From assembly GCA_028287505.1 (NCBI GenBank), contig JAQBPN010000084.1, forward strand, positions 22,147 through 86,146: a stretch of 64,000 bases of DNA. Reading direction: 5' to 3'. The DNA comes from Fibrobacterota bacterium. Its GTDB lineage: Bacteria; Fibrobacterota; Fibrobacteria; UBA11236. Position 1 is the first letter of the stretch, and each line of letters begins with the position of its first letter. The notes under the pieces are model-generated. The model saw nothing but the letters and a program-made list of their open reading frames with translations, had not been told where the DNA came from and did not search any database. A program made the position numbers and the translations under genes. Below are positions 19,991 through 49,969 of this stretch, one piece after another.

Positions 19991-19994
19991 GCCG

Positions 19995-24642: not shown

Positions 24643-26198
24643 GGGCCTGCCTCCAAGTCTCCGCCCACCAGAGCCGGGTCCCGCGCGCGTAGTCCTTCCA
24701 GCAGGCTGCGCAGATCGTCTTCCAGGGACCGGTCCGCCTGGACCAGGGCGCTGCGCCCGCGCGTCCAGACCAAGGCGGCGCCCAAGGGACCGTGGAGATC
24801 CGCGGCGACGCGGCCCTGCTCGCGCATACGCAATTCCACTCCCTGGCAGGCGGCCAGCAGGCCGCAAGCCGCCACCTGTTCGGTCAATTCCAGGACGCGC
24901 CGGCAATCGCGGGCCGCGAGCGTGCCCAGGCTCACCTTGTCCTGGTTGTGGCTTTCCGTGGAACGGGAGAACACGCTGGCGGGCATGCACAGTTTCAGGG
25001 CTTCCGCCGTGCAGGCGGACGCGGTGATCTGCAGGGCCTTGAGCCCGTGGTCGGTGGCGGATTCCGCGCCCACGGCGCCGCTCAGGTTGGCGGGCAGGCC
25101 GGCGTTCATTTTCGGATCGACCAGCAGGGCGATCTGGCGATCGATGAGATCGGCCAGGTTGGCCACCGTAGTCTTCATCGAGTCCATCACGTGGCAGATA
25201 TGCCCGCCGTAGAAATGGCCGCCGTGGTAGACCACGCCGTTCTCGGCGTCCACTATCGGGTTGTCGTTGGAGCTGTTGAGTTCGGTTTCGATGAAGTCCC
25301 GGTACCAGGGCAGGCAGTCCTCCAGCACGCCGATCACGTGCGGGGCGCAGCGGATGGAATACCTGTCCTGAAGGCTCCCCCCCGGCGTAACCTGATCCCG
25401 TTGCGCCAGATCCCGGCGGATGCGCGCGGCCGCGGCCCCCATGCCCGTGAAAGGCTTGACCGCGAAAAGGCCTTCGGCGAAGTGGCCGGCGTTGCCGTCC
25501 AGGGCCACCAGGGTCAGGGCCGTCAGGCGGGAGCAGACCAGCGTCAGGTATTCCGCCCGGGCGAAGTTCAGGCAGGCGATGGCGGTCATGACGGCGGTGC
25601 CGTTCATCATCGCCAGGGCTTCTTTGGGCCGCAGGCTGTAAGGATGCAGTCCCGCGGTCCGCAGCGCCTCCGCCGCGGGTACCATATCGCCGTCCTTCCA
25701 CGCCCGGCGTTCGCCGCACAGCACGGCCGCCACGTAGGAAAGGGGAGTGAGATCGCCGCTGGCGCCCACGGAACCTTCTTCGGGAATGACGGGCAGGATG
25801 TCGTGCTGCAAAAGCGCCTGCAGCCCTTCCAGCAACGCGAAGCTCACGCCCGAATAGCCCCGGGCCAGGGAGATGAGGCGGGAAGCCAGGATGGCGCGCG
25901 TCTCTTCTTCGCAGAACGGCCGCCCCAGGCCCACTCCGTGGTAGCGGACCAGCTTGGCGGGCAGCAGGGAGGCGAGCAGCGGGGAAACCTGCACGGACAC
26001 GTTCTCGCCGTAGCCGGTGGTCACGCCGTAGACGGTCCCGTTCCGCTCGATGAGGGCGTCGATGAGATCGGCGCCTTTGTTGATGCGGACGCGGAAGCCT
26101 CCGCTCTCGCCCATCCGCGATGCGGCCTTCCTTTCGGCCAAGGCCACCACATCCTCAAGGCGCAACCTGCCGCCGTCGAAAACAACCGTCCGCTTCAT
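24639..26198 (-). CDS. Aromatic amino-acid ammonia-lyase (HAL/PAL/TAL family, MIO-forming)
   Basis: GASGDLTPLS carries the Ala-Ser-Gly MIO precursor triad. 519 aa. HAL/PAL-like throughout (GYGENVS, NSSNDNP). Confidence 0.8.
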   Translation of the reverse strand: MKRTVVFDGGRLRLEDVVALAERKAASRMGESGGFRVRINKGADLIDALIERNGTVYGVTTGYGENVSVQVSPLLASLLPAKLVRYHGVGLGRPFCEEETRAILASRLISLARGYSGVSFALLEGLQALLQHDILPVIPEEGSVGASGDLTPLSYVAAVLCGERRAWKDGDMVPAAEALRTAGLHPYSLRPKEALAMMNGTAVMTAIACLNFARAEYLTLVCSRLTALTLVALDGNAGHFAEGLFAVKPFTGMGAAAARIRRDLAQRDQVTPGGSLQDRYSIRCAPHVIGVLEDCLPWYRDFIETELNSSNDNPIVDAENGVVYHGGHFYGGHICHVMDSMKTTVANLADLIDRQIALLVDPKMNAGLPANLSGAVGAESATDHGLKALQITASACTAEALKLCMPASVFSRSTESHNQDKVSLGTLAARDCRRVLELTEQVAACGLLAACQGVELRMREQGRVAADLHGPLGAALVWTRGRSALVQADRSLEDDLRSLLEGLRARDPALVGGDLEAGP

Positions 26199-27136
26199 GG
26201 CTTACCAACTTCCGGGTCGCCCCAAAAACGATAGATGTTGCCCCAGAGCATGGGCGCCAAAGTGCAATAGTACGAAAGTCTGTCCGCATACCGGCCGGCC
26301 AGGGCCGCCAGGTCTTCGCGCCGCGTGGCGCGGTTCAAGGCGATCCGTTCCGAAAAGGCCTCGTAATGGATGTCATAGCGGCCGTTCCGGCCGATGCAGA
26401 AGAACAGGAATACCGGGCATTCCAGCACCGAAGCCAGCACGTAGGGCCCGATGGGCAAAGGCGCCGGATGCGCCAGGAACGGCGCCCAGGCGATCCCTTT
26501 GCCGTCCAGGGGAACCCGGTCCCCGGCGATCAGGACCACCTCTCCCGCATCGATCTTGTCCTTCAACAGCATGGCGGTGGCGGGGGAAATGTCGCTCACC
26601 TGGAACAGGGACATCTGGCTCATGGGATTGATCCGGCTCATCAGGGCGATGAAACGCGGATTGTGCTTGGTGTGCACCAGCACGTTCACGTGGACCTTCC
26701 GCTCGCTCAGGGCCAGGTGGCGCGCCACTTCCATGTTCCCCAGGTGGGAACCGATCAGCAATATACCCTTGCCCCGTTCGAGCGCGCGCACCACCGCCTC
26801 GCGGCCGTGGCGGGCGAAGCGGGGAGGAGCGCTTTGGGGATCCCAGGCCAGGACCCTTTCCAGCACGCCCTCTCCGGAAACCAGCAGATGCCTGAAGACG
26901 GAAAAGTAGGAAGGCCTTCCTTTCGATCCCCGGAACGCGTAGAGGCGCTCCAGATACTGGCGGGACGCGTCCCGCTTGGATTTGCGAGTGAGGAAGAAAT
27001 AGAGCACCACCGGAACCAACGCGATGCGGAAAGGCCAGCGGCCCAGGCTGCGGCTGACCTCGAACAGAAAGCGCAGGCCCCAGGCGGAACCCAATTCCGC
27101 CGTGCCGGCCCAATGATCCTCGGCTACCGGTCTCAT
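26195..27136 (-). CDS. LpxL/HtrB-type lysophospholipid (lipid A-like) acyltransferase
   Basis: Internal Met start gives a ~313-aa LPLAT-family protein. 4-bp overlaps at both ends. Confidence 0.6.
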   Translation of the reverse strand: MRPVAEDHWAGTAELGSAWGLRFLFEVSRSLGRWPFRIALVPVVLYFFLTRKSKRDASRQYLERLYAFRGSKGRPSYFSVFRHLLVSGEGVLERVLAWDPQSAPPRFARHGREAVVRALERGKGILLIGSHLGNMEVARHLALSERKVHVNVLVHTKHNPRFIALMSRINPMSQMSLFQVSDISPATAMLLKDKIDAGEVVLIAGDRVPLDGKGIAWAPFLAHPAPLPIGPYVLASVLECPVFLFFCIGRNGRYDIHYEAFSERIALNRATRREDLAALAGRYADRLSYYCTLAPMLWGNIYRFWGDPEVGKP

Positions 27137-27870
27137 GCGATGGCCTTGCGCAGAAGCGGGACAAAGCGCGCCAGCATCCCGAAGAACAGCCGGGTATGCA
27201 TCCAGGATATGAGGGTATTGTCCAGCCCCAGGCGGAAATGGGACACGCCGCCTTCCGGATAGTTCACGGCCACGGGCAGAAAGCGCAAGGCGAGCCCGGC
27301 CCACTTGAGACGCACCAGCACCTCCGGATCGAAGTCCATGCGGTTTCCGGTCCGGCCCGCGTCGAGCACCCGCAGGGTGGCGGCCAGGGGATAGACCCGC
27401 AAGCCGCACATCCCATCGGGAATGGCCCTGGAAAGGGTGTTCACCTTGACCCAGAAATTGGTCAGCCGCCTTCCGTACAGGCGGGAGGATGGAACGCTGG
27501 CGTCGAACACCGGCCGGCCGCAGATGACGGCGTCCGGTTCCTTTTCGGCCGCGGCCAGGAGTTCCGGCAAGGCCCGCAAATCGTGTTGTCCGTCCGCGTC
27601 CACCTGGAGCGCATGGGTGAATCCCAGCTTCGCGGCCAGCCGCAATCCGGCCTTCACGGCCGCGCCCTTGCCGCCGTTCCTGTCCAGGCGCGCCAGGGTA
27701 ACCTGGGTGTTATGCGCGGCGGCCAGGCTTTCCAGGGCCCTTCGGCACGCCTCGCCGGAGCCGTCGTCCACCACCACGCAGGGAATCCCGTTGGGGCGCA
27801 GTCCCGCCAACACTTTTTGCAACGGGCCCGCGTGCTCATAGACCGGAATGACGATGCAGGGGCGGAACAT
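27133..27870 (-). CDS. Family-2 glycosyltransferase
   Basis: CIVIPVYEHAGPLQKVL...VVVDDGSGE matches the GT2 N-terminal DxD region. Confidence 0.7.
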   Translation of the reverse strand: MFRPCIVIPVYEHAGPLQKVLAGLRPNGIPCVVVDDGSGEACRRALESLAAAHNTQVTLARLDRNGGKGAAVKAGLRLAAKLGFTHALQVDADGQHDLRALPELLAAAEKEPDAVICGRPVFDASVPSSRLYGRRLTNFWVKVNTLSRAIPDGMCGLRVYPLAATLRVLDAGRTGNRMDFDPEVLVRLKWAGLALRFLPVAVNYPEGGVSHFRLGLDNTLISWMHTRLFFGMLARFVPLLRKAIA

Positions 27871-27880
27871 CAGGAGGCCG

Positions 27881-29626
27881 TTACGCTGTGAAGATGGCCT
27901 GGCCGCTGGCGTGCCGGCCCTGGGAGGAATCGTATTTGAACGAGATGCCGGATTTGTCCTTGAGGCGCGCGAGCTCCAGGCTGATGCGCATGCCGGGAAA
28001 GATGGGGCGCTGGAACTTAAGGGCCTGCAATCCGCGGAAAGCGCCGAAGGGGCCGAACAGGCGGGCGCCTTCCAGGATGGCCCAATCCAATTGCACCACG
28101 CCCGGCAACAAAGGCAGTTGGGGAAAGTGGCCGCGGAAATGTTCCAGCTCCGCGGGAATCTCCAGCTCCAGCACGGCGGCGCCGTTTTCCAACCGCCGCG
28201 TTTCCAGGATCACGGGGTTGACCTGGGGATCGAACAGGGACCGCAAGGCGGCCAGCGCAGTCTTGCCCGCGGCATTGGCCGGCATGGTTTCCACCAGCCG
28301 CCACCGCTTGGGCAGCAGCACGCGATCGAAACCGTTCAAGAGATGCGCGCGCAGGGACTGCACCAGGGCGGCCCTGGCTTCGCTGCCGCGCGTGGGAATC
28401 GCGCTGTCCCTGAGCCGCAACACCGCGCCCAGGGTGTCCCGATCGCCCGCCAGCACCAGCACGCGGGCCTCGGCTACGCGGGGATGGGCGGTCAGCAGGT
28501 CTTCCATCGCCGTGAGGGATAGGCGCTTCTCTTCCACTTTCACAATCCGGTCCGCGCGGCCCAGCAGCCGGAAGCCACCCTCGACCGCGCTCACGCGATC
28601 GGAGGTGGCGAACGGCTTCGAAGCCTTCATATGCGGCGATTTCACCAGCAGGAGTTCGCCCGCTTCGCCGATGGCGATTTCAACTTTCGGAAAAGCGGTC
28701 CAGGGCGGATCTTCTCCGGCCCGCCGGCGCCAAGCGATGCCGCCGGTTTCCGAACTCCCGTAGATTTCCACCGGGTCCGCGCCCAGCAGATGCGCGCAGG
28801 CGGGGACGCAGGCCCAGGGCAGCGGGCCGCCCGAGGAAAAAACCGCCGTCAACGGTCTGAAGCCTACCGTAGCGCCGGACGCATCCGGAAGATGCGGCTC
28901 GGGGAGACGCGCCTCCGGGAGGCGGCGCAAGAAAGCGGGGGAGGCCACCAGCACCACGGGACCCGGAGCTTGCAGCGACTCAGCCAATTCCTCGGGAAAG
29001 CGTATGAGGCGATCGGAAAAAGGCCGGCCCGCGGCCAGGGGCCAGAGGCACCGGAACAACAGGCCGTAGATATGCTGATGGCCGACCGTGGAAAGCACGC
29101 GCGCGCCGGAAAGACCCGCGCCCAGCACGGCCTCCAGCGTCTCCACCTCGTTGCCCAGATCGCTCCAGGTCTTTTCGACGGCCAAGGGCAGGCCCGTGGA
29201 TCCGGAAGTGAAGATGATCACCGGTAGATCCGGAACGGCCGGCGGTAAGGGAGTTGCGTGAGTCGCGGGAGCCGGTGCCGCGAAGGGCGGTTCGTTCCAC
29301 GTCGTCCGCATTCCGGGCCGCCCCGGGCCGCCGGCGGGAAAATCCCCCAGCAAGACGTCCGCCCTGCCGGCCAGCAGGGCGGTTGTGATCTCCGTCGCAT
29401 CTCCTGCGATTACCGCGGTGCATCCGGCGGCCCAGCAACCCAGCAGCGCGGCCGCGAAGTCGAAGGTATTCCCGAAATGCAGGGCCGCGCGCTTTGCGCC
29501 CGCTCCCTTCAGCGCATCGCGCCAGGCGTCGCGGAGCGCGGCGAGCGCGGTCCAATCCTGTCCGGGCGCAAGCCCCACGGGCCCGGAGAGGCCGGTCCCG
29601 GCCGCCATGTCGGTAAACCTCAGCAT
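27881..29626 (-). CDS. AMP-dependent synthetase/ligase (adenylation) fused to a C-terminal FabA/FabZ-like dehydratase
   Basis: Adenylation motifs IIFTSGSTGLPLAV and YGSSETGG. C-terminal ~140 aa carries LEHFRGHFPQLPLLPGVVQLDW, a hot-dog dehydratase motif. Confidence 0.65.
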   Translation of the reverse strand: MLRFTDMAAGTGLSGPVGLAPGQDWTALAALRDAWRDALKGAGAKRAALHFGNTFDFAAALLGCWAAGCTAVIAGDATEITTALLAGRADVLLGDFPAGGPGRPGMRTTWNEPPFAAPAPATHATPLPPAVPDLPVIIFTSGSTGLPLAVEKTWSDLGNEVETLEAVLGAGLSGARVLSTVGHQHIYGLLFRCLWPLAAGRPFSDRLIRFPEELAESLQAPGPVVLVASPAFLRRLPEARLPEPHLPDASGATVGFRPLTAVFSSGGPLPWACVPACAHLLGADPVEIYGSSETGGIAWRRRAGEDPPWTAFPKVEIAIGEAGELLLVKSPHMKASKPFATSDRVSAVEGGFRLLGRADRIVKVEEKRLSLTAMEDLLTAHPRVAEARVLVLAGDRDTLGAVLRLRDSAIPTRGSEARAALVQSLRAHLLNGFDRVLLPKRWRLVETMPANAAGKTALAALRSLFDPQVNPVILETRRLENGAAVLELEIPAELEHFRGHFPQLPLLPGVVQLDWAILEGARLFGPFGAFRGLQALKFQRPIFPGMRISLELARLKDKSGISFKYDSSQGRHASGQAIFTA

Positions 29627-29633
29627 GGGCGCT

Positions 29634-30191
29634 TTACCTGTGCCTCGCCGACATCACCCGGCGGCGCACCAGCCATTCCCCCGCGAACAGAACGCCCATC
29701 AGCAGGTAGGCCAGGAACCCGTTGTAGAAAGCCCATAGTCCCGGATTGCCGGAAAGGGCGGTGGCCGCCGCGGCGCAGGCGTTGAGCGCGAAAAAACCGC
29801 ACCAGACCTGGGTGACCCGGCGCGTATAGCGTACGCCATGCTCATCAAGATCGGGATGGCGGAAGCGCGCCAGGCGTTCGATGACGGTGGGAGGAATCCA
29901 CAGGCTCAGGCCGAAAACCAGAAGCAGGCTGAGATTTACGGCCACGGGGTAGTACAGCACGGATGCCTCGCCCCAGATCCAGGCCAGGGCGCCGGCGCCG
30001 GCGATCATCCCGATCAAGGCGTAGACCGGGACCTTGCGCACGATGGTTTTCCCCCAGCGCAGGGCCAGCACCGCCAGCAGCCCCAGGGCGATGAAGCGGG
30101 CGGGGATGCCTTGGCGAAGCCCGGCATAGACCAGCGCCGGATAGGCCGCCAGCAGAACCGCGGTCACGGCGGTGAGCTTGGACGGCGCCAC
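29634..30191 (-). CDS. Integral membrane protein (5-6 TM) of the APE cluster
   Basis: 185 aa, entirely hydrophobic helices. Confidence 0.5.
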   Translation of the reverse strand: MAPSKLTAVTAVLLAAYPALVYAGLRQGIPARFIALGLLAVLALRWGKTIVRKVPVYALIGMIAGAGALAWIWGEASVLYYPVAVNLSLLLVFGLSLWIPPTVIERLARFRHPDLDEHGVRYTRRVTQVWCGFFALNACAAAATALSGNPGLWAFYNGFLAYLLMGVLFAGEWLVRRRVMSARHR

Positions 30192-30193
30192 GG

Positions 30194-30463
30194 CTACTCG
30201 TTCACCAGCTTTTCGATGACGTTCACGACATCGTCGATGGTGCGCACGGTCTTGAACGGCTCCGGCTGCATGCGCTTGCCGATCAGCTTCTGCAGCTTGA
30301 CCATCAGATCGATGGCGTCGATGCTGTCGATTTCCAGGTCTTTGTAGAGTTCGGCGCCGGGAACCAACCGGCTTTTTTCGATGCCGAAGGTTTCGTTCAA
30401 AGTGGAAACCACCGCGGCCATGATTTCGTCCCGGGTCCTGATGCTCATGCTATTTCTCCGCAA
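30194..30463 (-). CDS. Acyl carrier protein
   Basis: LEIDSIDAIDLMVKL contains the phosphopantetheine-attachment Ser. Probable start at MSIRTR (~30448). Confidence 0.7.
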   Translation of the reverse strand: MRRNSMSIRTRDEIMAAVVSTLNETFGIEKSRLVPGAELYKDLEIDSIDAIDLMVKLQKLIGKRMQPEPFKTVRTIDDVVNVIEKLVNE

Positions 30464-30722
30464 CCGGGGCGCGGCGGCTTTCCACGAAGCCGGCGAGTTT
30501 TCTGACGCTGGAAAAATGTTCCCGGTTCTCCTTGGAGTCCGACGACATCTTGATTCCGTACTTTTTCTGGATGGCGATGCCGAGCTCCAGGGCGTCGATG
30601 GAATCCAATCCCAATCCGTCCCCGAAAATGGCGGCTTCCGCGTCGATGGATTCGGGGGTGACCTCTTCCAGTTTGAGCGTCGTGATGATCAGCTCCTTTA
30701 TTTCCAATTCAAGCTCCGGCAC
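30450..30722 (-). CDS. Acyl carrier protein (second, tandem)
   Basis: GLDSIDALELGIAI; tandem ACPs are an APE-cluster hallmark. Confidence 0.7.
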   Translation of the reverse strand: MPELELEIKELIITTLKLEEVTPESIDAEAAIFGDGLGLDSIDALELGIAIQKKYGIKMSSDSKENREHFSSVRKLAGFVESRRAPVAEK

Positions 30723-31485
30723 TGCAAAGGTCCTTGTTGAAGTAATACTGAAGATGATCGTTCAGGTCCCGGGCCGCCAGCGCCGGTTGGTCCGGGCGCG
30801 CCTTCAGGAACGGGCTGATGGGGATGTCGTCTTTCACGCGCAGGACAATCCTCATCCGGTGTTCCGGGGCCAGATACCACGCACCGCCCTTGTGGAGGTT
30901 GCTGCGGGTGCTTTCAATCACCACCGGAGTCACGTTTTGCCGGGTGCGGACCGCTACCTGGGCCGCGCCTTTCCGGAATTTCACGGGCATGCCCGGCGGC
31001 GTGCGCGTCCCCTCGGGGAAGATGATCACGTTGTTGCCCGAGTCGAGGCTCTTGCGGCAGCGCGCCATGGTGGATTCCCCTTCGTCGTTGCGGATGTAGC
31101 CGGCCAGCAGCACCGGCCAGCGCTTGAACCAATCGTTCAGCAAGGCGCTCTTGACGAAGCAATCGGCCTGGGGAATGACGGAGGCGAGCAGCACGAAATC
31201 GATGAGCGTGGGATGATTGGCAAGCACCAGATTGCCGGACCTGCGCAGGGCTTCCAGGCCTTCGTAGCGGACATGGAGCACTCCCGTGATCCGCATCAGC
31301 AGTACGAAGAGATGGAATCCCCTTTGGATGATAATGCGGCCCACACGGTGGCGCGATTCTTCCTTGCGCCAGACCAGCCATACCAGGGGGATGCCGAATA
31401 GACCCAAGGTCGCCCCCCCCAGGGCGAAGATGGCGAAGCACATGAGGGTGGCCGCCGTACGCCAGGTCCGCCAAAGCAGTTTCAT
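30709..31485 (-). CDS. PlsC-type 1-acyl-sn-glycerol-3-phosphate/lysophospholipid acyltransferase
   Basis: NHPTLIDF (HxxxxD) and FPEGTRT motifs. N-terminal TM. ATGA overlap upstream. Confidence 0.65.
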   Translation of the reverse strand: MKLLWRTWRTAATLMCFAIFALGGATLGLFGIPLVWLVWRKEESRHRVGRIIIQRGFHLFVLLMRITGVLHVRYEGLEALRRSGNLVLANHPTLIDFVLLASVIPQADCFVKSALLNDWFKRWPVLLAGYIRNDEGESTMARCRKSLDSGNNVIIFPEGTRTPPGMPVKFRKGAAQVAVRTRQNVTPVVIESTRSNLHKGGAWYLAPEHRMRIVLRVKDDIPISPFLKARPDQPALAARDLNDHLQYYFNKDLCSAGA

Positions 31486-32231
31486 GGGCGGACCCAATCC
31501 CAACGGCGGGTTCCGCGCCGCCAGGAGGCGCTCTTCCCGTTCCCGGCCCACATTTTCAGGAAGACCAGGGCCTGGGGCGGAACGGTTTCCCGGTCCGGCT
31601 CCGATTGCGTTTCCCACAAGGACAATTCGAATTCTTCGCCTCCTGAGGCTCCCAGCTCAAGCCCAAGGGCATAGCCCCCCGGTTCCCGGTCCCAATGCCC
31701 GTCGAGCGCGGAGGGCGGCACGGGATCGCTCATTACCACCAGCACGCGATCATGGCCTTCCAGGACCATGCCTTGGGCCTCCAGCAATGCGGCGGTGAAA
31801 CTCTCGCCGCGGGAGGAAAGCGAAGAGCTCATGCTGCGATCGCCTTTGGCGATGGAGAACTGGCCGGCCGCGGCGTTGTGCACGGACAGGCTGAAGTCCA
31901 TGGGGGAAGCCAACTCCTCCTCCGCCTGCGCCCTGAGCATGGCGACGGATCGCGCCACCTGCCCGTGCCGGCTGGCGAACACGCAGGGAAGGTCGTTTCC
32001 CGGAGGCGCCAGGCGGAACGCGACTTCCAGTCCCAGGCGATCGGCCGCATCCGCGCGCCGCCGGAGTATGGGCGGCATGGCGGAAACGGGGGCGGTGTGG
32101 GTCAAAGTATCGCTCCATTCCCGGTCTGAAGACGCCCATTCCCGCCATGCTTCCCGGTCAGAAAGCGACGGTCCCGCCCAGGCCTCCCAGGCCAGAATTC
32201 GAAGGGGCAGTCGAAAGCAATTTGAAAGCAT
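31482..32231 (-). CDS. First gene of the operon: KS N-terminal-domain-like (PF13723-type) protein
   Basis: 249 aa, no catalytic Cys. AT-rich promoter-like region immediately upstream (32232-32300). Confidence 0.4.
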   Translation of the reverse strand: MLSNCFRLPLRILAWEAWAGPSLSDREAWREWASSDREWSDTLTHTAPVSAMPPILRRRADAADRLGLEVAFRLAPPGNDLPCVFASRHGQVARSVAMLRAQAEEELASPMDFSLSVHNAAAGQFSIAKGDRSMSSSLSSRGESFTAALLEAQGMVLEGHDRVLVVMSDPVPPSALDGHWDREPGGYALGLELGASGGEEFELSLWETQSEPDRETVPPQALVFLKMWAGNGKSASWRRGTRRWDWVRP

Positions 32232-36711: not shown

Positions 36712-38649
36712 ATGTCGAGTGCGGAGGCATGGCGTTTCCAATGGACCGCCGCCATAGTAGTCTGTTTTGCTATGGCTCTGGATTCCGCTTCCGCCCAGGA
36801 CATGGAGAGTCTGCCTTCGCCGGGTCAATTGAAAAGAATGAGCCTGGAAGAACTGATGGACGTCAGGGTCACCCTGGTCTCCAGGCAATCCGAAAAACTC
36901 AACGAAGTCCCCTCCGCCGTCCAGGTCATCACCCAGGACGACATCCGCCGCTTCGGAGTCTTCACGCTTCCGGAGGCGTTGCGCCTGGCCACCAATCTGC
37001 AGGTGGCCCAGGTGGACGCGCGCCAATGGGCCATCAGCGCCCGCGGCCAGAACAATGTCCTGTCCAACAAACTATTGGTCATGATCGACGGGCGCACCGT
37101 CTATACGCCCTTGCACGCCGGGGTTTTCTGGGACGTGCAGAACATCATGCTGGACAACGTCGATCGCATCGAAGTCATCAGCGGGCCCGGGGGAACCCTG
37201 TGGGGGGCCAATGCCGTCAACGGCGTCATCAACATCGTCACCAAGGGCGCCGAATCCACCCAGGGCGGCTTGATCGGCGGCGGCGCGGGAACGGCCATGC
37301 AAGGCGTTGGGGCGGGGCGCTATGGCGGCAGGATCGGCAAGGACGTCTATTACCGCGTCTGGGGACGGGGTCTGCGGCACAACAGCACGGATTTCTCCAA
37401 CGGGAACGACGCCAAGAATCCCTGGGACATGTTGCAGAGCGGCTTCCGGACTGACTGGCTGCCGAAAGAAGGGGATAGGGTCACCGTTACCGGAAACCTC
37501 TATTCCGGCGATTTGGACCAGGATACTCCTTCGCCCACTGCCGTGGACGGCCAATATCTCATCGGCCGCTGGACGCGCGACTATTCCCAAGAATCCGGCA
37601 TCCAGGCCCAGGTGTATTTCGATCGCTCCGCGCGCACCATCCCGGCCATCTTTGGCGAGGATCTCCAGATTTACGATTTCGATTTCCAGCACCGGCTGCG
37701 CCTTGGCGATAGGAACGCGTTGATCTGGGGAACGGGTTACCGCTTCATGCGGGACGATGTGGTCAACAGCCCGGCCCTCGCATTCGTGCCGGGCCACAAG
37801 GACTTGAGCCTCTTCAACGGCTTTCTCCAGGATCAGATCATGCTGATCCCGGAGAGATTGCGGCTGATAGTGGGCAGCAAGCTCGAGCACAACGATTATT
37901 CCGGATTCGAAGTGATGCCGTCGGGGCGTCTGGCCTTCACGCCCGATGACCGCCAGACCATATGGGGAGCCGTCTCCCGGGCGGTGCGCTCCCCCAGCCG
38001 CATCGACGTGGACCTGTATCTGCCCGGCCCGCCGGTCCCGGCGGACTCCATCAGGTTGGAAGGCGGCCCCGGCTTCAAGGCCGAGGACCTGACCGCCTAT
38101 GAGGCGGGTTATCGGGTGGTGCCGATGCCGAACGTAACGGCTTCCCTCTCGGCCTTCTACAACTGGTACGATAATCTCCGCATTTTCGAGCCGGTGGGCG
38201 GCAATGTGATCCAATTCACCAACGGTTCGAAAGGCGAGGTGCGCGGGGTGGAGCTCTCCGCGGGCTGGCAGGCGATGGCGTGGTGGCAGCTCAAAGGCGG
38301 CTATACCTATCTGCAAGAGGAGTTCTGGACCAAGCCGGGCCATATCGAGCTCGCTTCCCCCGGAAGCCAGGGCGACGATCCGGATCACCAATTCCTGGTG
38401 CAGTCGATGATGGACCTCCCTGCGGGTTTTCAGCTCAACGGCGCCGTGCGTTACGTCTCCGCGCTTCCTTCCCCCGCCGTTCCCTATTACTCCACTTTCG
38501 ATCTGAGCGTAGTCTGGATGTTCCATTCCTTCACTTTTTCCATCGTGGGGCATGACCTCGCGGAGAAGAGCCATGCGGAATTCGGCCCGGTAACGACGCG
38601 AAACGAGGTTCCCCGTTCGGTTTCGGCGAGGGCCTCATGGCGTTTTTGA
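36712..38649 (+). CDS. TonB-dependent outer-membrane receptor
   Basis: Signal peptide, plug domain (EELMDVRVTLVSRQ...VPSAVQVITQDDIRRFGV), 22-strand barrel region, terminal ...SWRF. Confidence 0.8.
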   Translation: MSSAEAWRFQWTAAIVVCFAMALDSASAQDMESLPSPGQLKRMSLEELMDVRVTLVSRQSEKLNEVPSAVQVITQDDIRRFGVFTLPEALRLATNLQVAQVDARQWAISARGQNNVLSNKLLVMIDGRTVYTPLHAGVFWDVQNIMLDNVDRIEVISGPGGTLWGANAVNGVINIVTKGAESTQGGLIGGGAGTAMQGVGAGRYGGRIGKDVYYRVWGRGLRHNSTDFSNGNDAKNPWDMLQSGFRTDWLPKEGDRVTVTGNLYSGDLDQDTPSPTAVDGQYLIGRWTRDYSQESGIQAQVYFDRSARTIPAIFGEDLQIYDFDFQHRLRLGDRNALIWGTGYRFMRDDVVNSPALAFVPGHKDLSLFNGFLQDQIMLIPERLRLIVGSKLEHNDYSGFEVMPSGRLAFTPDDRQTIWGAVSRAVRSPSRIDVDLYLPGPPVPADSIRLEGGPGFKAEDLTAYEAGYRVVPMPNVTASLSAFYNWYDNLRIFEPVGGNVIQFTNGSKGEVRGVELSAGWQAMAWWQLKGGYTYLQEEFWTKPGHIELASPGSQGDDPDHQFLVQSMMDLPAGFQLNGAVRYVSALPSPAVPYYSTFDLSVVWMFHSFTFSIVGHDLAEKSHAEFGPVTTRNEVPRSVSARASWRF

Positions 38650-39194
38650 AGGGCAAAGCCGCTTGGGTGCTGGTCGCGATGGTTCTCCTGGGACTTCCGG
38701 GCTTGGCCGCGCAGGCGTCCCCGGACCGTGAACATCGGATCAAAGCCGTCTTCCTTTTCAATTTCGCTCAGTTCGTGCAATGGCCGGACAGCGCTTTCGC
38801 CGGGCCGGAGGATCCGTTGGTGGTGGGAATCCTGGGGGAGGATCCCTTCGACACCTATCTGGACGAGGTGGTGCGCGGCGAGAAAGTGAACAACCGCTCC
38901 ATCGTCGTAAAGCGCTACAAACGCATCGAAGACGCCAAAGGATGCCATGTGCTTTTCATAAGCGATTCGGAAATCCCCAGGACCGAGGCCATCTTCGCGG
39001 CCCTCAAGTCGAGCCATATCCTGACCGTGGGGGAATCGGATCTGTTCTTCCAGCGCGGGGGCATGGTCTGTTTCGCCACCGAGGCGGGCCGGATCCGCCT
39101 CAAGATCAACCTGGAAGCGGTCCAGGACGCGGAGCTCGTCGTGAGTTCGAAACTTCTCAGGCTTGCGGACGTCGCGGGTCCGCGCAAGGAGTAG
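38637..39194 (+). CDS. YfiR-family (DUF4154) periplasmic protein
   Basis: Signal peptide, then AVFLFNFAQFVQWP and VGILGEDPF...KGCHVLFIS; the DUF4154/YfiR signature. Overlaps the TBDR stop by 13 bp. Confidence 0.65.
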   Translation: MAFLKGKAAWVLVAMVLLGLPGLAAQASPDREHRIKAVFLFNFAQFVQWPDSAFAGPEDPLVVGILGEDPFDTYLDEVVRGEKVNNRSIVVKRYKRIEDAKGCHVLFISDSEIPRTEAIFAALKSSHILTVGESDLFFQRGGMVCFATEAGRIRLKINLEAVQDAELVVSSKLLRLADVAGPRKE

Positions 39195-39197
39195 CCG

Positions 39198-41573
39198 ATG
39201 GCATTCGGGAACATGCGCCTGCAGCAACGGCTGATGGCCATCATGCTCCTGACGAGCGCTTCGGTGTTGGTGCTCACCTGCGCCGGATTCTTCGCCTACG
39301 AATTCCTCACTTTCCGCCGATCCACCGTCCGCCAATTGTCCACTGTCGCGGCCATCATAGCCGACAACAGCACCGCCGTTCTCGCCTTCGCGGATAGGCC
39401 CGGCGCCCGGGAAATCCTTTCCGCGCTGAAGGCGGAGCCCCACATCACCGAGGCCGCCCTTTATGATGAAAACGGCAACGTGTTTTCCATCTACCCGGAG
39501 GGGCGCGGAGCGGCCGGGATACCCTCCGTTCCCGCCGCGGATGGATTCCGTTTCGAACAATCCTTTTTGATCGGCTTCCAGCCGGTGGTCCAGAACGATC
39601 GCCGCCTGGGCACTTTGTACGTGCAATCGGATCTGAAGGCCGTGTCCGCGCGCTTCCGCTTGTACGGCGCGGTGGCGGCCCTGGTTGCCGCGGTGGCCTT
39701 TCTGGCATCCTATCTTCTCTCCCGGGCCTTGCAGCGTCAGATCTCCGCGCCCATCATGGCGCTGGCGGAAACGGCCCAGGCGGTTTCCGATCGGCGCGAT
39801 TACTCCGTGCGGGCCCGCCGGATCGGGGACGGCGAGCTGGGGCTCCTGACGGATTCGTTCAACCAGATGCTCAACCAGATCCAGGAACAGCTGGGCCGCA
39901 TGGAGCTTCTCAACCAGATTACCCGCGCCATCGGCGAACGCCTCGATCTCTCGAGCGTTTTCCAGGTGATGACCGGCGCCCTGGAAAACGACCTGCCGGT
40001 GGATTTCGTTTGCGTGTGCCGCTACGATGCCGCGCAGGACCGCCTGACGGTGACGAGCGTGGGAGCCAAATCCGGCGCCCTGGCCGCCGAACTGGGCTTG
40101 ACCTCGCAAGCGCGCATGCAGGCGGAGGGGAGCGGACTGGAAAAATGCCTGCGCGGGGAAATGGTCTACCATGCGGATGTATCCGGAACCGGCTCCCCCT
40201 TCGCGGAGCGCCTGGTCGCGCAAGGCTTGCATTCGTTGGTGCTTGCGCCCCTGATTGTCGAAAGCGGCGTGTTCGGGGTCCTGATAGCCGCGCGCCGCAT
40301 GCCGGATGGATTCAGCGCGATGGACCGCGAGTTCCTGCGGCAGTTGAGCGATCATGCGGCCCTGGCGGCGCATCAGGCCCATCTTTACGGGGCATTGCAG
40401 CAAGCCTATGAGGATTTGCGCCGTTCCCAGCAGGCGGTGATGGAACAGGAGCGCTTGCGGGCCCTGGGACAGATGGCCAGCGGCATAGCGCACGACATCA
40501 ACAATGCCATCTCCCCGGCGGCCCTGTATACGGAATCAATCCTGGAAAGCGAAACCGGGCTGAGCCCCAAAGCGCGGGAACAGTTGCAGACCATCGCCCA
40601 CGCCATCGAGGACGTGTCCGCCACGGTGGGGCGCATGCGCGAGTTCTCCCGCAAGAAGGAGCCGATGATGGCGCTGGTGCCCGTGCAGCTCAACCGCTCC
40701 CTGCAGCAGGTGATCGATCTCACGCGCGCCCGCTGGCACGACACGCCGCAGCAGCGGGGGTTCGTCATCAAGATCGAGACCGAACTGGACCAGAGCCTGC
40801 CCGTGGTCATGGGCGTGGAAGGGGAAATCCGCGAAGCCTTCACCAACCTGTTCCTGAACGCTTTCGACGCCATGCCGGAGGGCGGCACCCTGACCCTGCG
40901 GACGCGCGTCGTGCGCAATACCCTCGTATGCGTGGAGGTGTCCGATACGGGCGCGGGCATGGACGAGGAGACGCGGCGGCGATGCCTGGAACCCTTCTAC
41001 ACCACCAAGGGCGAGCGGGGCACAGGGCTGGGGCTGGCCATGGTGTACGGCGTGACCGAGCGCCATGGGGCGGATCTGGAGATCGACAGCGAGGTGGGCA
41101 AGGGAACCACCATGCGGCTGATATTCCCGGTGGCGCAGTATGCGGCCGTGGAGGCCGCGCCGTCCCCGCAGGCTCCCGCCGCGCCGGTCCATGTCCGCGT
41201 CCTGGTGGTGGACGACGATCCGCTGGTGGCCAAGGTATTGCGGGATACCATGAAGACGGACGGCCATGACGTTTCCACCGCCAACGGCGGCCAGGCCGGC
41301 ATCGACGCCTTTTTGGCGGCGCAGAAGGCGGGCGCGCCGTTCGACGTGGTCATGACGGATCTGGGAATGCCGTACGTGGACGGCCGCAAGGTGGCGGCCG
41401 CGGTGAAGAAGGCTTCGCCCGCGACGCCGGTGATTCTGCTGACGGGTTGGGGGCAAAGCCTCTTGGCGGATGGAGACATGCCGGCCCACGTGGACCGGCT
41501 CCTGAGCAAGCCGCCCAAGATTGCGGAATTGCGGGAAGCCTTGATGCTCTCCGTGCCGCAAACCGTGCGCTAG
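39198..41573 (+). CDS. Hybrid sensor histidine kinase: TM, periplasmic sensor, TM, HAMP, GAF, HisKA, HATPase, receiver
   Basis: H-box IAHDINNAIS, N/G-boxes (LFLNAFDAM, DTGAGMD, GTGLGLA), receiver VLVVDDDPLV...DVVMTDLGMP. Begins 4 bp after the YfiR-like stop. Confidence 0.8.
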   Translation: MAFGNMRLQQRLMAIMLLTSASVLVLTCAGFFAYEFLTFRRSTVRQLSTVAAIIADNSTAVLAFADRPGAREILSALKAEPHITEAALYDENGNVFSIYPEGRGAAGIPSVPAADGFRFEQSFLIGFQPVVQNDRRLGTLYVQSDLKAVSARFRLYGAVAALVAAVAFLASYLLSRALQRQISAPIMALAETAQAVSDRRDYSVRARRIGDGELGLLTDSFNQMLNQIQEQLGRMELLNQITRAIGERLDLSSVFQVMTGALENDLPVDFVCVCRYDAAQDRLTVTSVGAKSGALAAELGLTSQARMQAEGSGLEKCLRGEMVYHADVSGTGSPFAERLVAQGLHSLVLAPLIVESGVFGVLIAARRMPDGFSAMDREFLRQLSDHAALAAHQAHLYGALQQAYEDLRRSQQAVMEQERLRALGQMASGIAHDINNAISPAALYTESILESETGLSPKAREQLQTIAHAIEDVSATVGRMREFSRKKEPMMALVPVQLNRSLQQVIDLTRARWHDTPQQRGFVIKIETELDQSLPVVMGVEGEIREAFTNLFLNAFDAMPEGGTLTLRTRVVRNTLVCVEVSDTGAGMDEETRRRCLEPFYTTKGERGTGLGLAMVYGVTERHGADLEIDSEVGKGTTMRLIFPVAQYAAVEAAPSPQAPAAPVHVRVLVVDDDPLVAKVLRDTMKTDGHDVSTANGGQAGIDAFLAAQKAGAPFDVVMTDLGMPYVDGRKVAAAVKKASPATPVILLTGWGQSLLADGDMPAHVDRLLSKPPKIAELREALMLSVPQTVR

Positions 41574-41598
41574 CCCCGGGCTTCCCGCCCGGGCGCAA

Positions 41599-46634: not shown

Positions 46635-49118
46635 TCAAGGCGGAGTAATTCGTTCCGCCCCAATCAGGGACAATTCGTTGATCTGCACGAATCCGGTGCC
46701 CGTAAGGCCCGTCACGGTAAAGCGGAATATTTTGAACGGCCGGGCCTTGTAGGCCTGCCTGGACCATGCATCCGCCGCCGCTTGCGGAACCGAGGCCAGT
46801 TCCATGAAGCTTCCGGACTTTCCGTCCATATCCGCCTGGGTGTCGGCGCCCGCCAGGCTCCAGGAATACCGGCCGGTGCCCAAGGACCCGGATAGGGCCG
46901 CGCCCGCGCCCATGGTCCAGACGGGCTTGTCGAAGGCGAAGGTAACCGAAAGGGGCCGGGAGGGAAAGACGCCCAGGCGCATCTGCTCGCGCACCTGGTA
47001 CCCGTTCAAAGCCTGCTTGAACAGTTTGATTTCCCGGATGCCGCCCGCATAGGTGCTCCATTCGGGATGGTTGCCGATGGTGACCGGCCGGTCGGTGATC
47101 TTCATCGGTCCCGTTACGGAAAGTTCATTGATCAATTCCCCATTGATGAAGATCCGCAATAGGGCTCCGTCATAGGTGCCGGTTACATGGGTCCACTCCC
47201 CGATTACGGCCGGGGCCGTAACCACGTAGGAATGTCCGTCGGGGGTGCCGTCCTCGATGACGATGCCGAAATTATATTGCCCGTCCACGATCTCCAGGGC
47301 GAAGGAGGTGGGCCAGTACAGCCTTCCCACCAGGGTGCGCCGGAATACCGTGCTATCGGGCTTGACCAGGGCCGTCACCGTCATGGACTCGCGGAAATCC
47401 AGATCGGGGGCGGGCTTCGCCGTCACTGTATCGTCGTTGCTGAATTGCGCCCAGGCGCCGGCGCTGTCGCTTTTGCAGACCAGGGAACCTTGCACCAATC
47501 CGTCATGGCCGTTTCCGGACAGGTCGGGTATGGAGGCCTTGCCGCAATCCTTGAAGTCCCAATCGGCTACGGGCTTGGGAATCAGGTCCGGATTGGAGGA
47601 CTTGAATTCGATGAGGCCGGGCAGCAGGGTGTCCCCGTCGTACAATCCTCCCGGGAAGCGGGCTACGCCCGGGCTTACGGCATTATGGGACGTGTAGGCT
47701 TTGGTGAAATCCACGGCGACGGGAGCATAAGCGGTGTCGTCGTCCTGGATGGAAAGGACGGCGCGCACGGGGTCGGCCAGGACGGCGCCATTGCCGGGAG
47801 AGTGCAGCACGGCCGCGAAACTTTCCGTCCCTTCCGCGCGATCGTCTTTCACCAGCAGGGCGTGCAGGGGCTGCAGGGTGTCTCCGGCGGCGAAGACCAG
47901 CTCGCCGCTCAGGGGCAGGTAATCCGAGTCCCGCACGGCGGTGGAATCCCGGAGATTCCATTTGACGGAAACGGGCCGGTCCGCGGGCCCGAGCCTGCGG
48001 ACCATGGCCACCACGGCGGCGTCGCTTTCCCGGGCGGAGAATTGCGCGCGGGTGAATTGGAACCGGATGGGAGATGCCGAGGGCGGAACATGCACCGGCG
48101 TAATCACGGCGGCCGCGCTGCGGTTGCCTTCCGCGTCCACGGCCGCCAGGCGATAAGTGCAGGCGAAGTCCGCGGTGTCGGGAACGGTCCGGTAAAGGGT
48201 GTCCCGGAAGACGGTGTCGCGGATGAGGATATCCGTAAGCGGGGTCTCGATCACGTTGGGGACGGACTCGATGGGTTTGCGGAACAGGATGTAACCGGCC
48301 ACGTCGGGCACTTCCGCCGGGTCCCAGGCCAGGACGGCGATGCGTTTGCCCTCGTCCACGGCGATGCGGAAGCCTTTGGGGGCGGGAGGCGGCCCGGCCG
48401 GATTGAGGACCAGAACCACCGTGTCCGGAAGGGGAGCGATGCTTCCGGAGACGACCTGGATGGGGCCCAGTTTGCGGGCCACGTATTCCGCGTTGTCGAA
48501 CTCCACCGTGTAGGAGCCTTCGGGAATGTTCAGCAGGGTGCAGCGTCCGCTTTCATCGGTAAAGGCCACGTAGGAAAGGCCGGGTATGTGGCAGGTGACG
48601 TTCTCCAGGGGTTTGCGGCCGGATCCGGGGCCAGAGCCGGCGCCCGCGGCGACCACGGCCGTGATGCCGCCCACGCGGCGCAGGTCCAGGTCCGCCGCCT
48701 GGGTGATGGACAGGGCCGTGACCTTTACGGAGGGCAGGTAGCCCACCCATTTCCCGCCCTGGCCCGGATTGGAATAGAAGCCGAGGATGCCGTAGTCGCC
48801 GGCGGCGAGTCCGGTAAAGCGGTATCGCCCGCGCGCATCCGCCAGGGTGGCCCGGAACCGGACGGTGTCCCGCAAGGTATCCGGGTTCTGCAGCACCCGG
48901 AGCAGAACGGCGCTGTCCGGCCGCGCGGCCGGGTCCCGCCGGAATGCATATACTTCCGCGCCCGCGGCGGAAGCGGCATCGTCCCGGGACAAGCCTCCCT
49001 GGATGCCCTGCATGCCCGTCTCGGTGCCGCTTTCCGTGCCCTGCATGCAGGCGAGCGGGACGAACAGGAGCAGGAACGCGATGGGGAAAAGGGGGAGGAC
49101 GGTTCGCAGGAGTTTCAC
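46635..49118 (-). CDS. Giant secreted multidomain protein: 2x CarboxypepD_reg-like, FN3, Calx-beta, LamG, C-terminal discoidin-like
   Basis: Modules include YRFTGLAAGDYGILGF and CTLLNIPEGSYTVEF (CarbopepD_reg), FRIAVDEGKRIAVLAWDP (FN3), DDRAEGTESFAAVL (Calx-beta) and WTHVTGTYDGALLRIFINGE (LamG). Likely GTG start at 49118, overlapping the upstream stop (GTGA). Confidence 0.6.
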   Translation of the reverse strand: MKLLRTVLPLFPIAFLLLFVPLACMQGTESGTETGMQGIQGGLSRDDAASAAGAEVYAFRRDPAARPDSAVLLRVLQNPDTLRDTVRFRATLADARGRYRFTGLAAGDYGILGFYSNPGQGGKWVGYLPSVKVTALSITQAADLDLRRVGGITAVVAAGAGSGPGSGRKPLENVTCHIPGLSYVAFTDESGRCTLLNIPEGSYTVEFDNAEYVARKLGPIQVVSGSIAPLPDTVVLVLNPAGPPPAPKGFRIAVDEGKRIAVLAWDPAEVPDVAGYILFRKPIESVPNVIETPLTDILIRDTVFRDTLYRTVPDTADFACTYRLAAVDAEGNRSAAAVITPVHVPPSASPIRFQFTRAQFSARESDAAVVAMVRRLGPADRPVSVKWNLRDSTAVRDSDYLPLSGELVFAAGDTLQPLHALLVKDDRAEGTESFAAVLHSPGNGAVLADPVRAVLSIQDDDTAYAPVAVDFTKAYTSHNAVSPGVARFPGGLYDGDTLLPGLIEFKSSNPDLIPKPVADWDFKDCGKASIPDLSGNGHDGLVQGSLVCKSDSAGAWAQFSNDDTVTAKPAPDLDFRESMTVTALVKPDSTVFRRTLVGRLYWPTSFALEIVDGQYNFGIVIEDGTPDGHSYVVTAPAVIGEWTHVTGTYDGALLRIFINGELINELSVTGPMKITDRPVTIGNHPEWSTYAGGIREIKLFKQALNGYQVREQMRLGVFPSRPLSVTFAFDKPVWTMGAGAALSGSLGTGRYSWSLAGADTQADMDGKSGSFMELASVPQAAADAWSRQAYKARPFKIFRFTVTGLTGTGFVQINELSLIGAERITPP

Positions 49119-49969
49119 GGCCGGGTCCTCGCCTGGGGAAACAATTGGATGTTCAATTGGCACAGGCGGTCCGCGGGCTTCTCGTCCTTATGCACCAGGG
49201 ACCGCACTTCCGACAGGAACTTCTGCAGCTTCTTTTCGATCTTGACGTAGATGTCCGAGGAGACGCTCAAGGTCCGCGTGACGAAGGTTTTGGGTTGCAG
49301 GTCGGGATCGTAGAGGGCGGGCAGCCCCAGCTCGATGCATTTGGCCTGATAGCGTTTGACGAGGGCGTCGTTGGCGTCCGATTTCGAGAACAGGATCTTT
49401 TCGCCCGGCTTCCAGAACCCGCGCTTGTCCTGCCTGATGAAATTCAGCCGCTTCAACAGCTCCATGGAAGCCTTCACCTGGGGCACGGTGACGGGAGGAT
49501 AGAGCGCCTTGGCGATCTTCTCGTGTTCGTCCGAGATGTCGGCGATATCCAGGTAGGCGCGGATGGCGCTGGTATACCATTCCCGGTAATATTCATAGGC
49601 GCTCCTGTCCACCAGCATCCAGGGCGTGCGGTTCAAGGCGATGAGCTGATCCAGGTAGAACTCCCTTTCGTCCTTGACCACGGTCTGGTTGTACAGGACC
49701 AGGAATCGGAAATACTGGGCCTCGTCCCCGTCCAGGCCGAAAATGGGGATCAGCAATTCCATCTTGGCCTTGGAAAGCTGCTTCTTGCCCGCGATGATGT
49801 CGGAAAAGAAACTGCGGCTGTTGGGCAGGCCCATCTGGCGGCAGATGGAGGTCTTGGTGAACCTGTCGTCGCTGCCGGCGCGCCATTCGTAGGCTTCCGC
49901 CAGGAAGCGCTTGAAGTCCACGAAGCTGAAGATGTTGACGGGCGCCGGGGCGCCATGCGATTTTTCCAT
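49115..49969 (-). CDS. TIGR02147-family ('Fibrobacter paralogous family') putative HTH regulator
   Basis: NIFSFVDFKRFLAEAYEWRAG...SICRQMGLPNSRSFFSDIIAGKKQLSKAKMELLIPIFGLDGDEAQYFRFLVLYNQ matches the family consensus. Start at MEKSHG (49969). Confidence 0.6.
   Translation of the reverse strand: MEKSHGAPAPVNIFSFVDFKRFLAEAYEWRAGSDDRFTKTSICRQMGLPNSRSFFSDIIAGKKQLSKAKMELLIPIFGLDGDEAQYFRFLVLYNQTVVKDEREFYLDQLIALNRTPWMLVDRSAYEYYREWYTSAIRAYLDIADISDEHEKIAKALYPPVTVPQVKASMELLKRLNFIRQDKRGFWKPGEKILFSKSDANDALVKRYQAKCIELGLPALYDPDLQPKTFVTRTLSVSSDIYVKIEKKLQKFLSEVRSLVHKDEKPADRLCQLNIQLFPQARTRP

Follow-up and report, generated by a model that had tools for sequence, protein, structure and literature searches.

The window analysed here is a stretch of 64,000 nucleotides from a Fibrobacterota bacterium (GenBank assembly GCA_028287505.1, contig JAQBPN010000084.1, positions 22,147 to 86,146 of the forward strand). 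Positions 36712–41573 of the window carry three consecutive genes, specifying a TonB-dependent receptor (TBDR), a YfiR-like periplasmic protein and a hybrid sensor histidine kinase, for which an earlier note, made from the sequence alone, had proposed a signalling relay that leads from outer membrane to cytoplasm. The genes, and the features recognized in and around them, are as follows (window coordinates, strand).

36712–38649, plus: TBDR gene, TOL_0244 family, 645 aa
36829–36885, plus: conserved N-terminal segment of the TBDR, residues 40–58, LKRMSLEELMDVRVTLVSR; family consensus LKKLSLEELMNIEVTSVSK
38637–38649, plus: 13 nt shared by the stop region of the TBDR gene and the start of the YfiR-like gene, ATGGCGTTTTTGA (read directly)
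38637–39194, plus: gene for the YfiR-like periplasmic protein, TOL_0243 family, DUF4154, 185 aa
39186–39191, plus: AAGGAG, Shine-Dalgarno-like hexamer for the kinase, within the last codons of the YfiR-like gene (read directly)
39198–41573, plus: hybrid sensor histidine kinase gene, 791 aa
39315–39623, plus: CHASE8 periplasmic sensor domain, kinase residues 40–142 (PF17152, E=3e-17)
39375–39389, plus: A-V-L-A-F motif, kinase residues 60–64 (BLASTP alignment with DgcN)
39732–39887, plus: HAMP domain, kinase residues 179–230 (PF00672)
39942–40367, plus: GAF domain, kinase residues 249–390 (PF13185, PF01590)
40464–41135, plus: kinase core, with HisKA at residues 423–488 (H432) and HATPase_c at residues 541–646 (Pfam)
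41199–41543, plus: C-terminal receiver (REC), kinase residues 668–782 (PF00072, E=3.9e-17)
41575–41593, no strand: GC-rich 7-bp hairpin, CCCGGGC ttccc GCCCGGG, between the kinase stop and a convergent gene (read directly)

A GGAGGG sequence lies 9 nt 5' of the TBDR ATG at 36712. At the first junction the receptor frame reads GCC TCA TGG CGT TTT TGA (A-S-W-R-F-stop) and the frame of the YfiR-like protein reads ATG GCG TTT TTG (M-A-F-L); the 13-nt overlap between them is the likely site of translational coupling of the two genes. The second junction (AAGGAG TAG CCG ATG) leaves 3 nt between the YfiR-like stop and the kinase start. The tight linkage described by the earlier note is thus as it had been stated, and its domain calls for all three proteins proved correct by Pfam and NCBIfam. 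A scan for promoters and terminators around the operon returned nothing above background; the hairpin at 41575–41593, which that scan did not call because it has no T-run, probably marks the end of the operon. The G+C content at third codon positions of the YfiR-like open reading frame (ORF) is 0.78, matching that of the neighbouring genes, and the stretch is also present in the Logan assembly of SRR13312994, an independent assembly in which an identical protein was called.

Products of the three genes

All three products score above the cutoffs of a set of models defined together in NCBIfam release 20: NF053590, NF053591 and NF053592. Against the first of these ("TOL_0244 family TonB-dependent receptor") the receptor scores 758.7 bits (cutoff 645), covering profile positions 1–604 of 604, and it possesses Pfam Plug [E=1.3e-18] and TonB-dependent barrel [E=2.7e-27] domains. 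Its AlphaFold 2 (AF2) model is a plug within a 22-strand barrel (predicted local distance difference test, pLDDT, 81; predicted template modelling score, pTM, 0.82). Foldseek matches to Cir and BtuB have template modelling (TM) scores of 0.78–0.85, and the nearest structures as a group are Cir, BtuB, PirA and PfeA (0.7–0.85). The C-terminus, S-W-R-F, ends in an aromatic residue as in TonB-dependent transporters. The corresponding NCBI record, 100% identical, is JWO30_3278 ("hypothetical protein") from a metagenome-assembled genome (MAG) labelled Fibrobacteres. It is 625 aa long and begins at M21, a start which removes most of the signal peptide; the start at 36712 gives a normal signal sequence (36712–36771).

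No STN domain (PF07660) was matched on the receptor, in which a signal peptide of about 29 residues and a stretch of about 34 residues precede a plug beginning at residue 63. The term "transducer" used in the earlier note does not therefore apply in its classical sense. The stretch ahead of the plug includes the segment LKRMSLEELMDVRVTLVSR, in which K41 and L48 are found in 63/63 family members and V53, T54, V56 and S57 in at least 57/63. The confidence of the AF2 model is low over residues 40–58, as expected for a flexible segment. Directly before the plug stands a V-T-x-V-S motif which is TonB-box-like by motif resemblance only. A regular expression for this N-terminal motif was directed at TBDRs outside triads, and the loci held no other TBDRs for comparison. 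When the conservation of the same 63 family members was mapped on the AF2 topology the plug was the most conserved region, with a mean majority-residue frequency of 81%. The extracellular loops are moderately conserved (2.26 bits), suggesting a common ligand, and the periplasmic turns of the barrel are the least conserved (1.88 bits), so that any periplasmic docking site would be expected on the plug face or the N-terminal segment.

Two relatives of the receptor, P0417 (708 aa) and P0435 (724 aa), show a Response_reg match (PF00072) besides Plug and barrel, which could mean that the gene call joined them to a receiver gene lying upstream, or could be a genuine peculiarity. The TBDR of a Methylococcales MAG (L016:6079–7941) is 66–75% identical to proteins labelled Verrucomicrobia, Acidobacteria and Opitutaceae. 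This is well above what the relatedness of these phyla would give, and suggests either transfer of the triad across phyla or some mis-binning.

The YfiR-like protein has an N-terminal Sec-type signal segment by hydropathy and no lipobox cysteine; the mature protein would comprise residues ~28–185. It matches PF13689 [DUF4154/YfiR-HmsC-like] at E=5.9e-45 (153 bits, cutoff 24.9) and NF053591 ["TOL_0243 family YfiR-like periplasmic protein"] at 161.9 bits (cutoff 125), and falls below the cutoff of the canonical YfiR model NF053586 (38.5 bits vs 85). By sequence it finds YfiR in the PDB at E=4.4e-5. Its AF2 model (pLDDT 84.5) is a single alpha/beta domain which Foldseek places on YfiR [4YN7/5EB1] at E=1.6e-8, with target-normalised TM scores of 0.74–0.76; the next matches are to one lobe of solute-binding proteins [5Z6V, 3LFT, 3LKV]. 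The earlier note had named failure of the DUF4154 assignment as a possible refutation of its proposal, and the assignment holds both by hidden Markov model and by fold. Invariant residues cluster in an N-terminal helix (KAVFLxNFxQFVxWP) and a C-terminal helix (SSKLLRxA), and it is the same surface of YfiR that contacts both YfiB and YfiN (PMC4655355). A pocket of YfiR made up of L166, I169, V176, P178 and L181 takes either F57 of YfiB or vitamin B6/Trp (PMC4887326); alignment with the PDB YfiR gives L159, V162, V169, S171 and L174 as the window equivalents. Tandem DUF4154 proteins of 341–378 aa also exist, among them three of 341–364 aa with two domains (L083:2931–3959, L084:1196–2290, L085:197–1222). 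Two of their genes have readable context and precede CHASE8 kinases with no TBDR; L083 has an extra DUF4154 gene after the kinase.

Pfam recognizes CHASE8, HAMP, GAF, HisKA, HATPase_c and Response_reg domains in the kinase, each above cutoff. Hydropathy predicts transmembrane segments at residues 12–34 and 157–175, with residues ~35–156, CHASE8 included, between them. Residues 8–229 match NF053592 ["sensor histidine kinase, YfiR-like protein-associated"] at 237.4 bits (cutoff 194), and the N-terminus matches the N-terminal half of the DgcN/YfiN model NF007423 at E=7.7e-22. The family alignment shows no variation at H432, N550, D583 or the G-boxes. The GAF domain is possibly a second, cytoplasmic input.

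For comparison we used the canonical yfiR-dgcN-yfiB operon of E. coli. Kinase residues 37–236 align by BLASTP with residues 43–239 of E. coli DgcN (E=2e-10), and in this alignment 66-AAVVF-70 of DgcN falls on 60-AVLAF-64 of the window kinase. The AAVVF motif has been genetically defined as the YfiR-binding site of YfiN (Malone 2012, PMC3375315). Across the 65 complete kinases of the family described below neither A63 nor F64 varies, and the stretch in which they stand, A-N-S-T-A-A-L-A-F, hardly does. Control of the kinase by the YfiR-like protein, which the earlier note had put forward, is well supported at the level of sequence, CHASE8 presumably being the docking site.

Conservation of the triad and related systems

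Relatives of the YfiR-like protein were found at no fewer than 446 loci (at least 446, one genome per species being scanned), and when clusters at 50% identity were queried with it, 22,233 of them matched at E≤1e-3; at E≤1e-30 the number was 1,057. Neighbourhoods were counted in the best 80 of the at least 446 loci, which by record title span about ten phyla: Fibrobacterota, Acidobacteriota, Gemmatimonadota, Verrucomicrobiota, Bacteroidota, Gammaproteobacteria, Nitrospira, Methylomirabilota, Polyangia and others. In 61 of the 67 loci with enough flanking sequence the gene directly upstream, on the same strand, is that of a TBDR, and a 62nd (L020) shows a fragmented match by tblastn. A CHASE8/HAMP kinase lies directly downstream in 71/72 (tblastn), the exception, L075, having the order kinase, TBDR, YfiR-like. 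Every complete downstream gene, that of the window included, specifies CHASE8, HAMP, HisKA and HATPase_c (65/65), and GGDEF is not among the families matched by these 65. The spacing recurs as well: a start codon is available exactly at the 13-nt overlap offset in 60 of the 72 TBDR-containing loci, and the gap to the kinase is −4 to +3 nt in 62/78. With both order and spacing shared by dozens of genomes across many phyla, chance falls far short of accounting for the adjacency, and the triad is strongly conserved beyond the one genome for which the earlier note had described it. Complete triads were available in 59 cases.

Variation is found mainly around the kinase. Among the 65 complete genes a fused receiver occurs in 11, GAF in 6 and PAS in about 21. 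In L021 (11137–13532), L061 (10008–13531) and about 35 other loci the kinase gene is followed by a REC-only gene of about 150 aa and then by a PAS-HisKA-HATPase-REC-REC hybrid kinase gene, an arrangement which suggests a multi-kinase phosphorelay. The window differs in that its receiver is fused to the kinase and neither of these genes follows. A YfiB homologue was sought by tblastn with E. coli YfiB and is absent, the best window match having E=3.5 and none of the 80 loci giving a match at E≤1e-3.

Mirror-tree correlations were 0.63 for the TBDR/YfiR-like pair, the highest, and 0.59 and 0.58 for the other two; none of 2000 permutations was as high. The mean p-distances of the three proteins are similar (0.47, 0.45 and 0.46). 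Correlated distance matrices together with similar divergence indicate that the three proteins are inherited as a unit.

Gene order and adjacency in the window match the consecutive locus tags implied by the names of the three NCBIfam models. From the models come names and nothing more; GAF and a fused REC, which the window kinase has in addition, are both minority traits (6/65 and 11/65). In the literature searched we found no account of a DUF4154-linked TBDR triad, nor a signalling test of a member. TOL_0244 of Thalassolituus, the namesake of the receptor family, is sevenfold up on n-C28 alkane, and a similarity of 40% to OmpS, the alkane sensor of Alcanivorax dieselolei, has been reported for it (PMC6304351). 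Cultured candidate carriers of the triad are Thalassolituus oleivorans MIL-1 (TOL_0243 and TOL_0244, with the kinase gene next to them), Flavitalea sp. BT771 (L065) and Opitutus terrae PB90-1.

The likeness to YfiBNR of P. aeruginosa, and to yfiR-dgcN-yfiB of E. coli, lies in a periplasmic DUF4154 protein of the same fold, a partner in the inner membrane whose CHASE8-HAMP input is homologous and which keeps an AAVVF-type motif, a three-compartment layout which includes an outer-membrane component, and tight operon coupling (E. coli yfiR and dgcN overlap by 11 nt). HmsCDE of Yersinia is grouped with YfiBNR as a comparable system. The output here is HisKA/HATPase/REC, whereas that of YfiBNR is GGDEF, and the outer-membrane part is a 22-strand TBDR encoded upstream, whereas YfiB is an OmpA/Pal-like lipoprotein encoded downstream. 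Full membership of YfiBNR was considered and rejected: there is no GGDEF and no YfiB, the YfiR cysteine pairs are missing, and the match to NF053586 is below cutoff. Malone 2012 described the YfiR-YfiN[PAS/HAMP] core as modular, with kinase outputs and without YfiB in distant phyla, and makes no mention of TonB (PMC3375315).

The closest tested design is that of Cycloclasticus sp. P1, in which Wang 2023 described clustered genes for a TBDR (pahS), a 318-aa periplasmic solute-binding protein (pahP) and a kinase (pahK), with the locus tags Q91_0827, Q91_0826 and Q91_0825 (PMC10570129). Together with the unlinked GacA-type PahR these are reported to constitute a cell-surface signalling relay for polycyclic aromatic hydrocarbons that does not involve a sigma factor of the extracytoplasmic function (ECF) type; PahS binds PahP and PahP binds PahK, as found by surface plasmon resonance (SPR), bacterial two-hybrid analysis (BACTH) and fluorescence resonance energy transfer (FRET) (PMC10570129). 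The order TBDR, periplasmic protein, histidine kinase is the same, the regulator is likewise unlinked, and the sizes are similar (TBDR 687 aa in PahS vs 645 here; kinase 771 aa in PahK vs 791 here). What was proposed and tested there is a relay with the periplasmic protein as the shuttle that links receptor and kinase. Compared by description, PahP is a two-lobe protein of 318 aa and the window protein a single-lobe DUF4154 protein of 185 aa, while PahK is described as having no periplasmic sensor domain and the window kinase has CHASE8. By these descriptions the Pah system and the triad look like parallel designs. It was also considered whether PahP could be a tandem DUF4154 protein; the two tandem forms with readable context precede CHASE8 kinases and have no TBDR. 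In a search seeded with a Methylococcales member of the family the best 120 matches were uncultured relatives and included no Cycloclasticus protein.

PfeA-PfeSR and PirA-PirSR of P. aeruginosa are TBDR-linked two-component systems that sense an imported substrate. In them too a TBDR is linked to a sensor kinase, and PfeA and PirA are among the nearest solved relatives of the window receptor. Unlike the triad, they have no dedicated periplasmic adaptor, their kinases are without CHASE8, and a DNA-binding regulator is adjacent. With the classical pathways (FecA/FecR/FecI, FpvA/FpvR/PvdS) the triad shares an outer-membrane TBDR as the first component on the way to cytoplasmic regulation. Membership of this TBDR/anti-sigma/ECF-sigma class was rejected, since the receptor is without an STN domain and neither an anti-sigma nor an ECF sigma gene is adjacent. 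As a concept, the distinct route proposed by the earlier note was already known from the NCBIfam models, Malone 2012 and Wang 2023. The locus adds one more member to a family already catalogued; set beside YfiBNR and the Pah system, which have been characterised by experiment, that whole family is a variant.

Candidate mechanism and alternatives

On balance we lean towards reading the triad as a single sensory unit, coupled in translation, that spans the envelope and has the YfiR-YfiN[CHASE8/HAMP] switch as its basis and the TBDR as its outer-membrane input. The secreted YfiR-like protein would bind the A-x-L-A-F motif in CHASE8 of the kinase and set the state of the latter, presumably holding it off by analogy with YfiR and YfiN. 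The TOL_0244-type receptor would stand in for YfiB, a role suggested by linkage, coupling, co-inheritance and the Pah precedent. Binding or import of a ligand at the TBDR may then shift the partitioning of the YfiR-like protein between receptor and kinase, with either polarity. The receptor might capture the protein via its conserved flexible N-terminal segment or the plug face, or might hand over a ligand to the hydrophobic pocket which in YfiR takes F57 of YfiB or small aromatics. The freed or engaged kinase would autophosphorylate at H432 and pass the phosphate to its own receiver, and from there to Hpt or response-regulator partners encoded outside the window.

Among the 33 window ORFs scanned there is no response regulator, Hpt, TonB/ExbBD, ABC importer, anti-sigma or ECF sigma gene, and the triad is therefore a self-contained operon. 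With no inner-membrane transporter, TonB/ExbBD, anti-sigma or ECF sigma linked to it, a sensing role fits better than a nutritional one. The operon probably carries a cell-surface signal to the kinase. The flow of that signal from the TBDR to the YfiR-like protein is plausible, given the conserved linkage, the apparent translational coupling and the analogy with the systems described above. An intact plug (81%) and a highly conserved N-terminal segment were also counted in favour of the receptor as the input.

Several observations weigh on the other side. Linkage and mirror-tree correlation would also be expected from shared operon inheritance. The periplasmic barrel turns, the least conserved region of the receptor, offer no conserved docking surface. 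The disulfide pairs of YfiR (C71-C110 and C145-C152) are lost, the window protein having only C103 (=C110) and C145 (=C152), of which C103 alone is near-invariant across the family; the redox-sensing behaviour of YfiR cannot for that reason be transferred to it. Binding of small molecules by YfiR itself is only millimolar (PMC4887326). Finally, five of the 67 loci (L030, L044, L061, L067 and L069) have the YfiR-like/kinase pair with no TBDR upstream, its place being taken by genes for a FIST protein, a phosphoglucomutase, a CHASE3 kinase or a DUF1501 protein (L069 resembling L044). From these we conclude that the TBDR is an accessory input and that the core two-protein switch does not need it.

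The TBDR might instead be a plain TonB-energised importer, its substrate being detected in the periplasm by free YfiR-like protein, by CHASE8 or by both. There are parallels: PfeS/PfeR is considered to sense enterobactin that has come in through PfeA, and the hybrid two-component systems of Bacteroides to sense imported glycans. An intact and conserved plug and TonB-box-like motif are what an importer would have, the greater conservation of the extracellular loops than of the periplasmic turns suggests one conserved ligand, and the resemblance of the YfiR fold to a single solute-binding-protein lobe [5Z6V, 3LFT, 3LKV] would suit a protein that detects it. The response of TOL_0244 to n-C28 alkane (PMC6304351) and the ability of the partner-binding pocket of YfiR to take small aromatic molecules (PMC4887326) agree with this as well. 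Import followed by sensing would by itself leave unexplained, however, both the conserved 13-nt coupling of TBDR and YfiR-like genes and the position of these two proteins as the top mirror-tree pair. Nor does the window contain a linked inner-membrane uptake system, and in the one tested analogue PahS and PahP bind each other directly. We regard import followed by sensing as unlikely, though far from negligible.

To a YfiR-like/kinase pair that acts as a self-contained sensor of periplasmic stress or redox state, like YfiB-independent YfiNR, with the TBDR as mere co-expressed cargo or target, we give a small chance. The five loci without a TBDR and the tandem-DUF4154 versions preceding CHASE8 kinases would be examples of such a pair, and Malone 2012 records many YfiNR pairs without an outer-membrane partner (PMC3375315). 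It is difficult to reconcile with this that the TBDR is linked in 62/67 loci across phyla with the overlap conserved, that it belongs to a dedicated equivalog-level family evolving at the same rate as its partners, and that the YfiR-like protein is without the redox-sensitive cysteine pairs of YfiR. Chance adjacency, or mis-annotation of a small ORF, has next to no probability; it has only the small size of the ORF in its favour and is refuted by the DUF4154 match, the third-position G+C content, the like arrangement in dozens of genomes and the independent assembly.

Within the envelope-spanning sensory unit that we favour, one particular version can be offered tentatively and is distinctly unlikely as it stands: on ligand binding the N-terminal segment of the TBDR (LKKLSLEELM...VTSVS) would be released into the periplasm and would there capture the YfiR-like protein via the pocket that otherwise grips A-L-A-F of the kinase. 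This would liken the receptor to YfiB, the N-terminal loop of which captures YfiR.

Surrounding genes and significance

The genes flanking the triad are unrelated to it: they specify an SMP-30/gluconolactonase (SGL)-like protein, a secreted FlgD_ig protein, a PL14-like protein and a DEAD/DUF3516 helicase. Further away, 15740–31617 on the minus strand is a probable aryl-polyene/flexirubin-type lipid-pigment biosynthetic cluster. It includes ketoacyl synthases (15740–17440 and 18167–19564), an FAD halogenase-like enzyme (19995–21272), an MMPL transporter (21229–23604), an aromatic amino-acid ammonia-lyase (24639–26198), a family 2 glycosyltransferase (GT2, 27133–27870), an AMP-ligase fused with an ApeI-like dehydratase (27881–29626) and an acyltransferase (30709–31617). 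At 8167–11478 on the plus strand lies the gene for a protein of 1103 aa, unusual in a bacterium, in which DUF2341 and a Laminin_G_3/ConA-like domain are combined with long stretches of collagen triple-helix repeats [Collagen, E=8e-64]. A second Laminin_G_3 surface protein, with Calx-beta, is encoded at 46635–49163.

The locus in this window is itself an ordinary member of an NCBI-catalogued family. Surface-to-cytoplasm signalling in Gram-negative bacteria is well understood mainly for the TBDR/anti-sigma/ECF-sigma route, and the triad is widespread, being common in poorly studied soil and freshwater phyla such as Verrucomicrobiota, Gemmatimonadota, Acidobacteriota, Bacteroidota and Fibrobacterota. 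The AxLAF motif, the pocket residues and the N-terminal segment of the TBDR provide specific targets for mutation. Were capture by that segment to prove true, the triad would represent a class of TonB-dependent cell-surface signalling, ancient and spread across phyla, that has a histidine kinase as its end point and involves neither an ECF sigma factor nor a solute-binding shuttle. If, more generally, the TBDR gates a YfiR-type switch on a kinase, many "orphan" TBDRs would be sensors and not nutrient importers, and the YfiBNR mechanism would be one branch of a much larger modular family.

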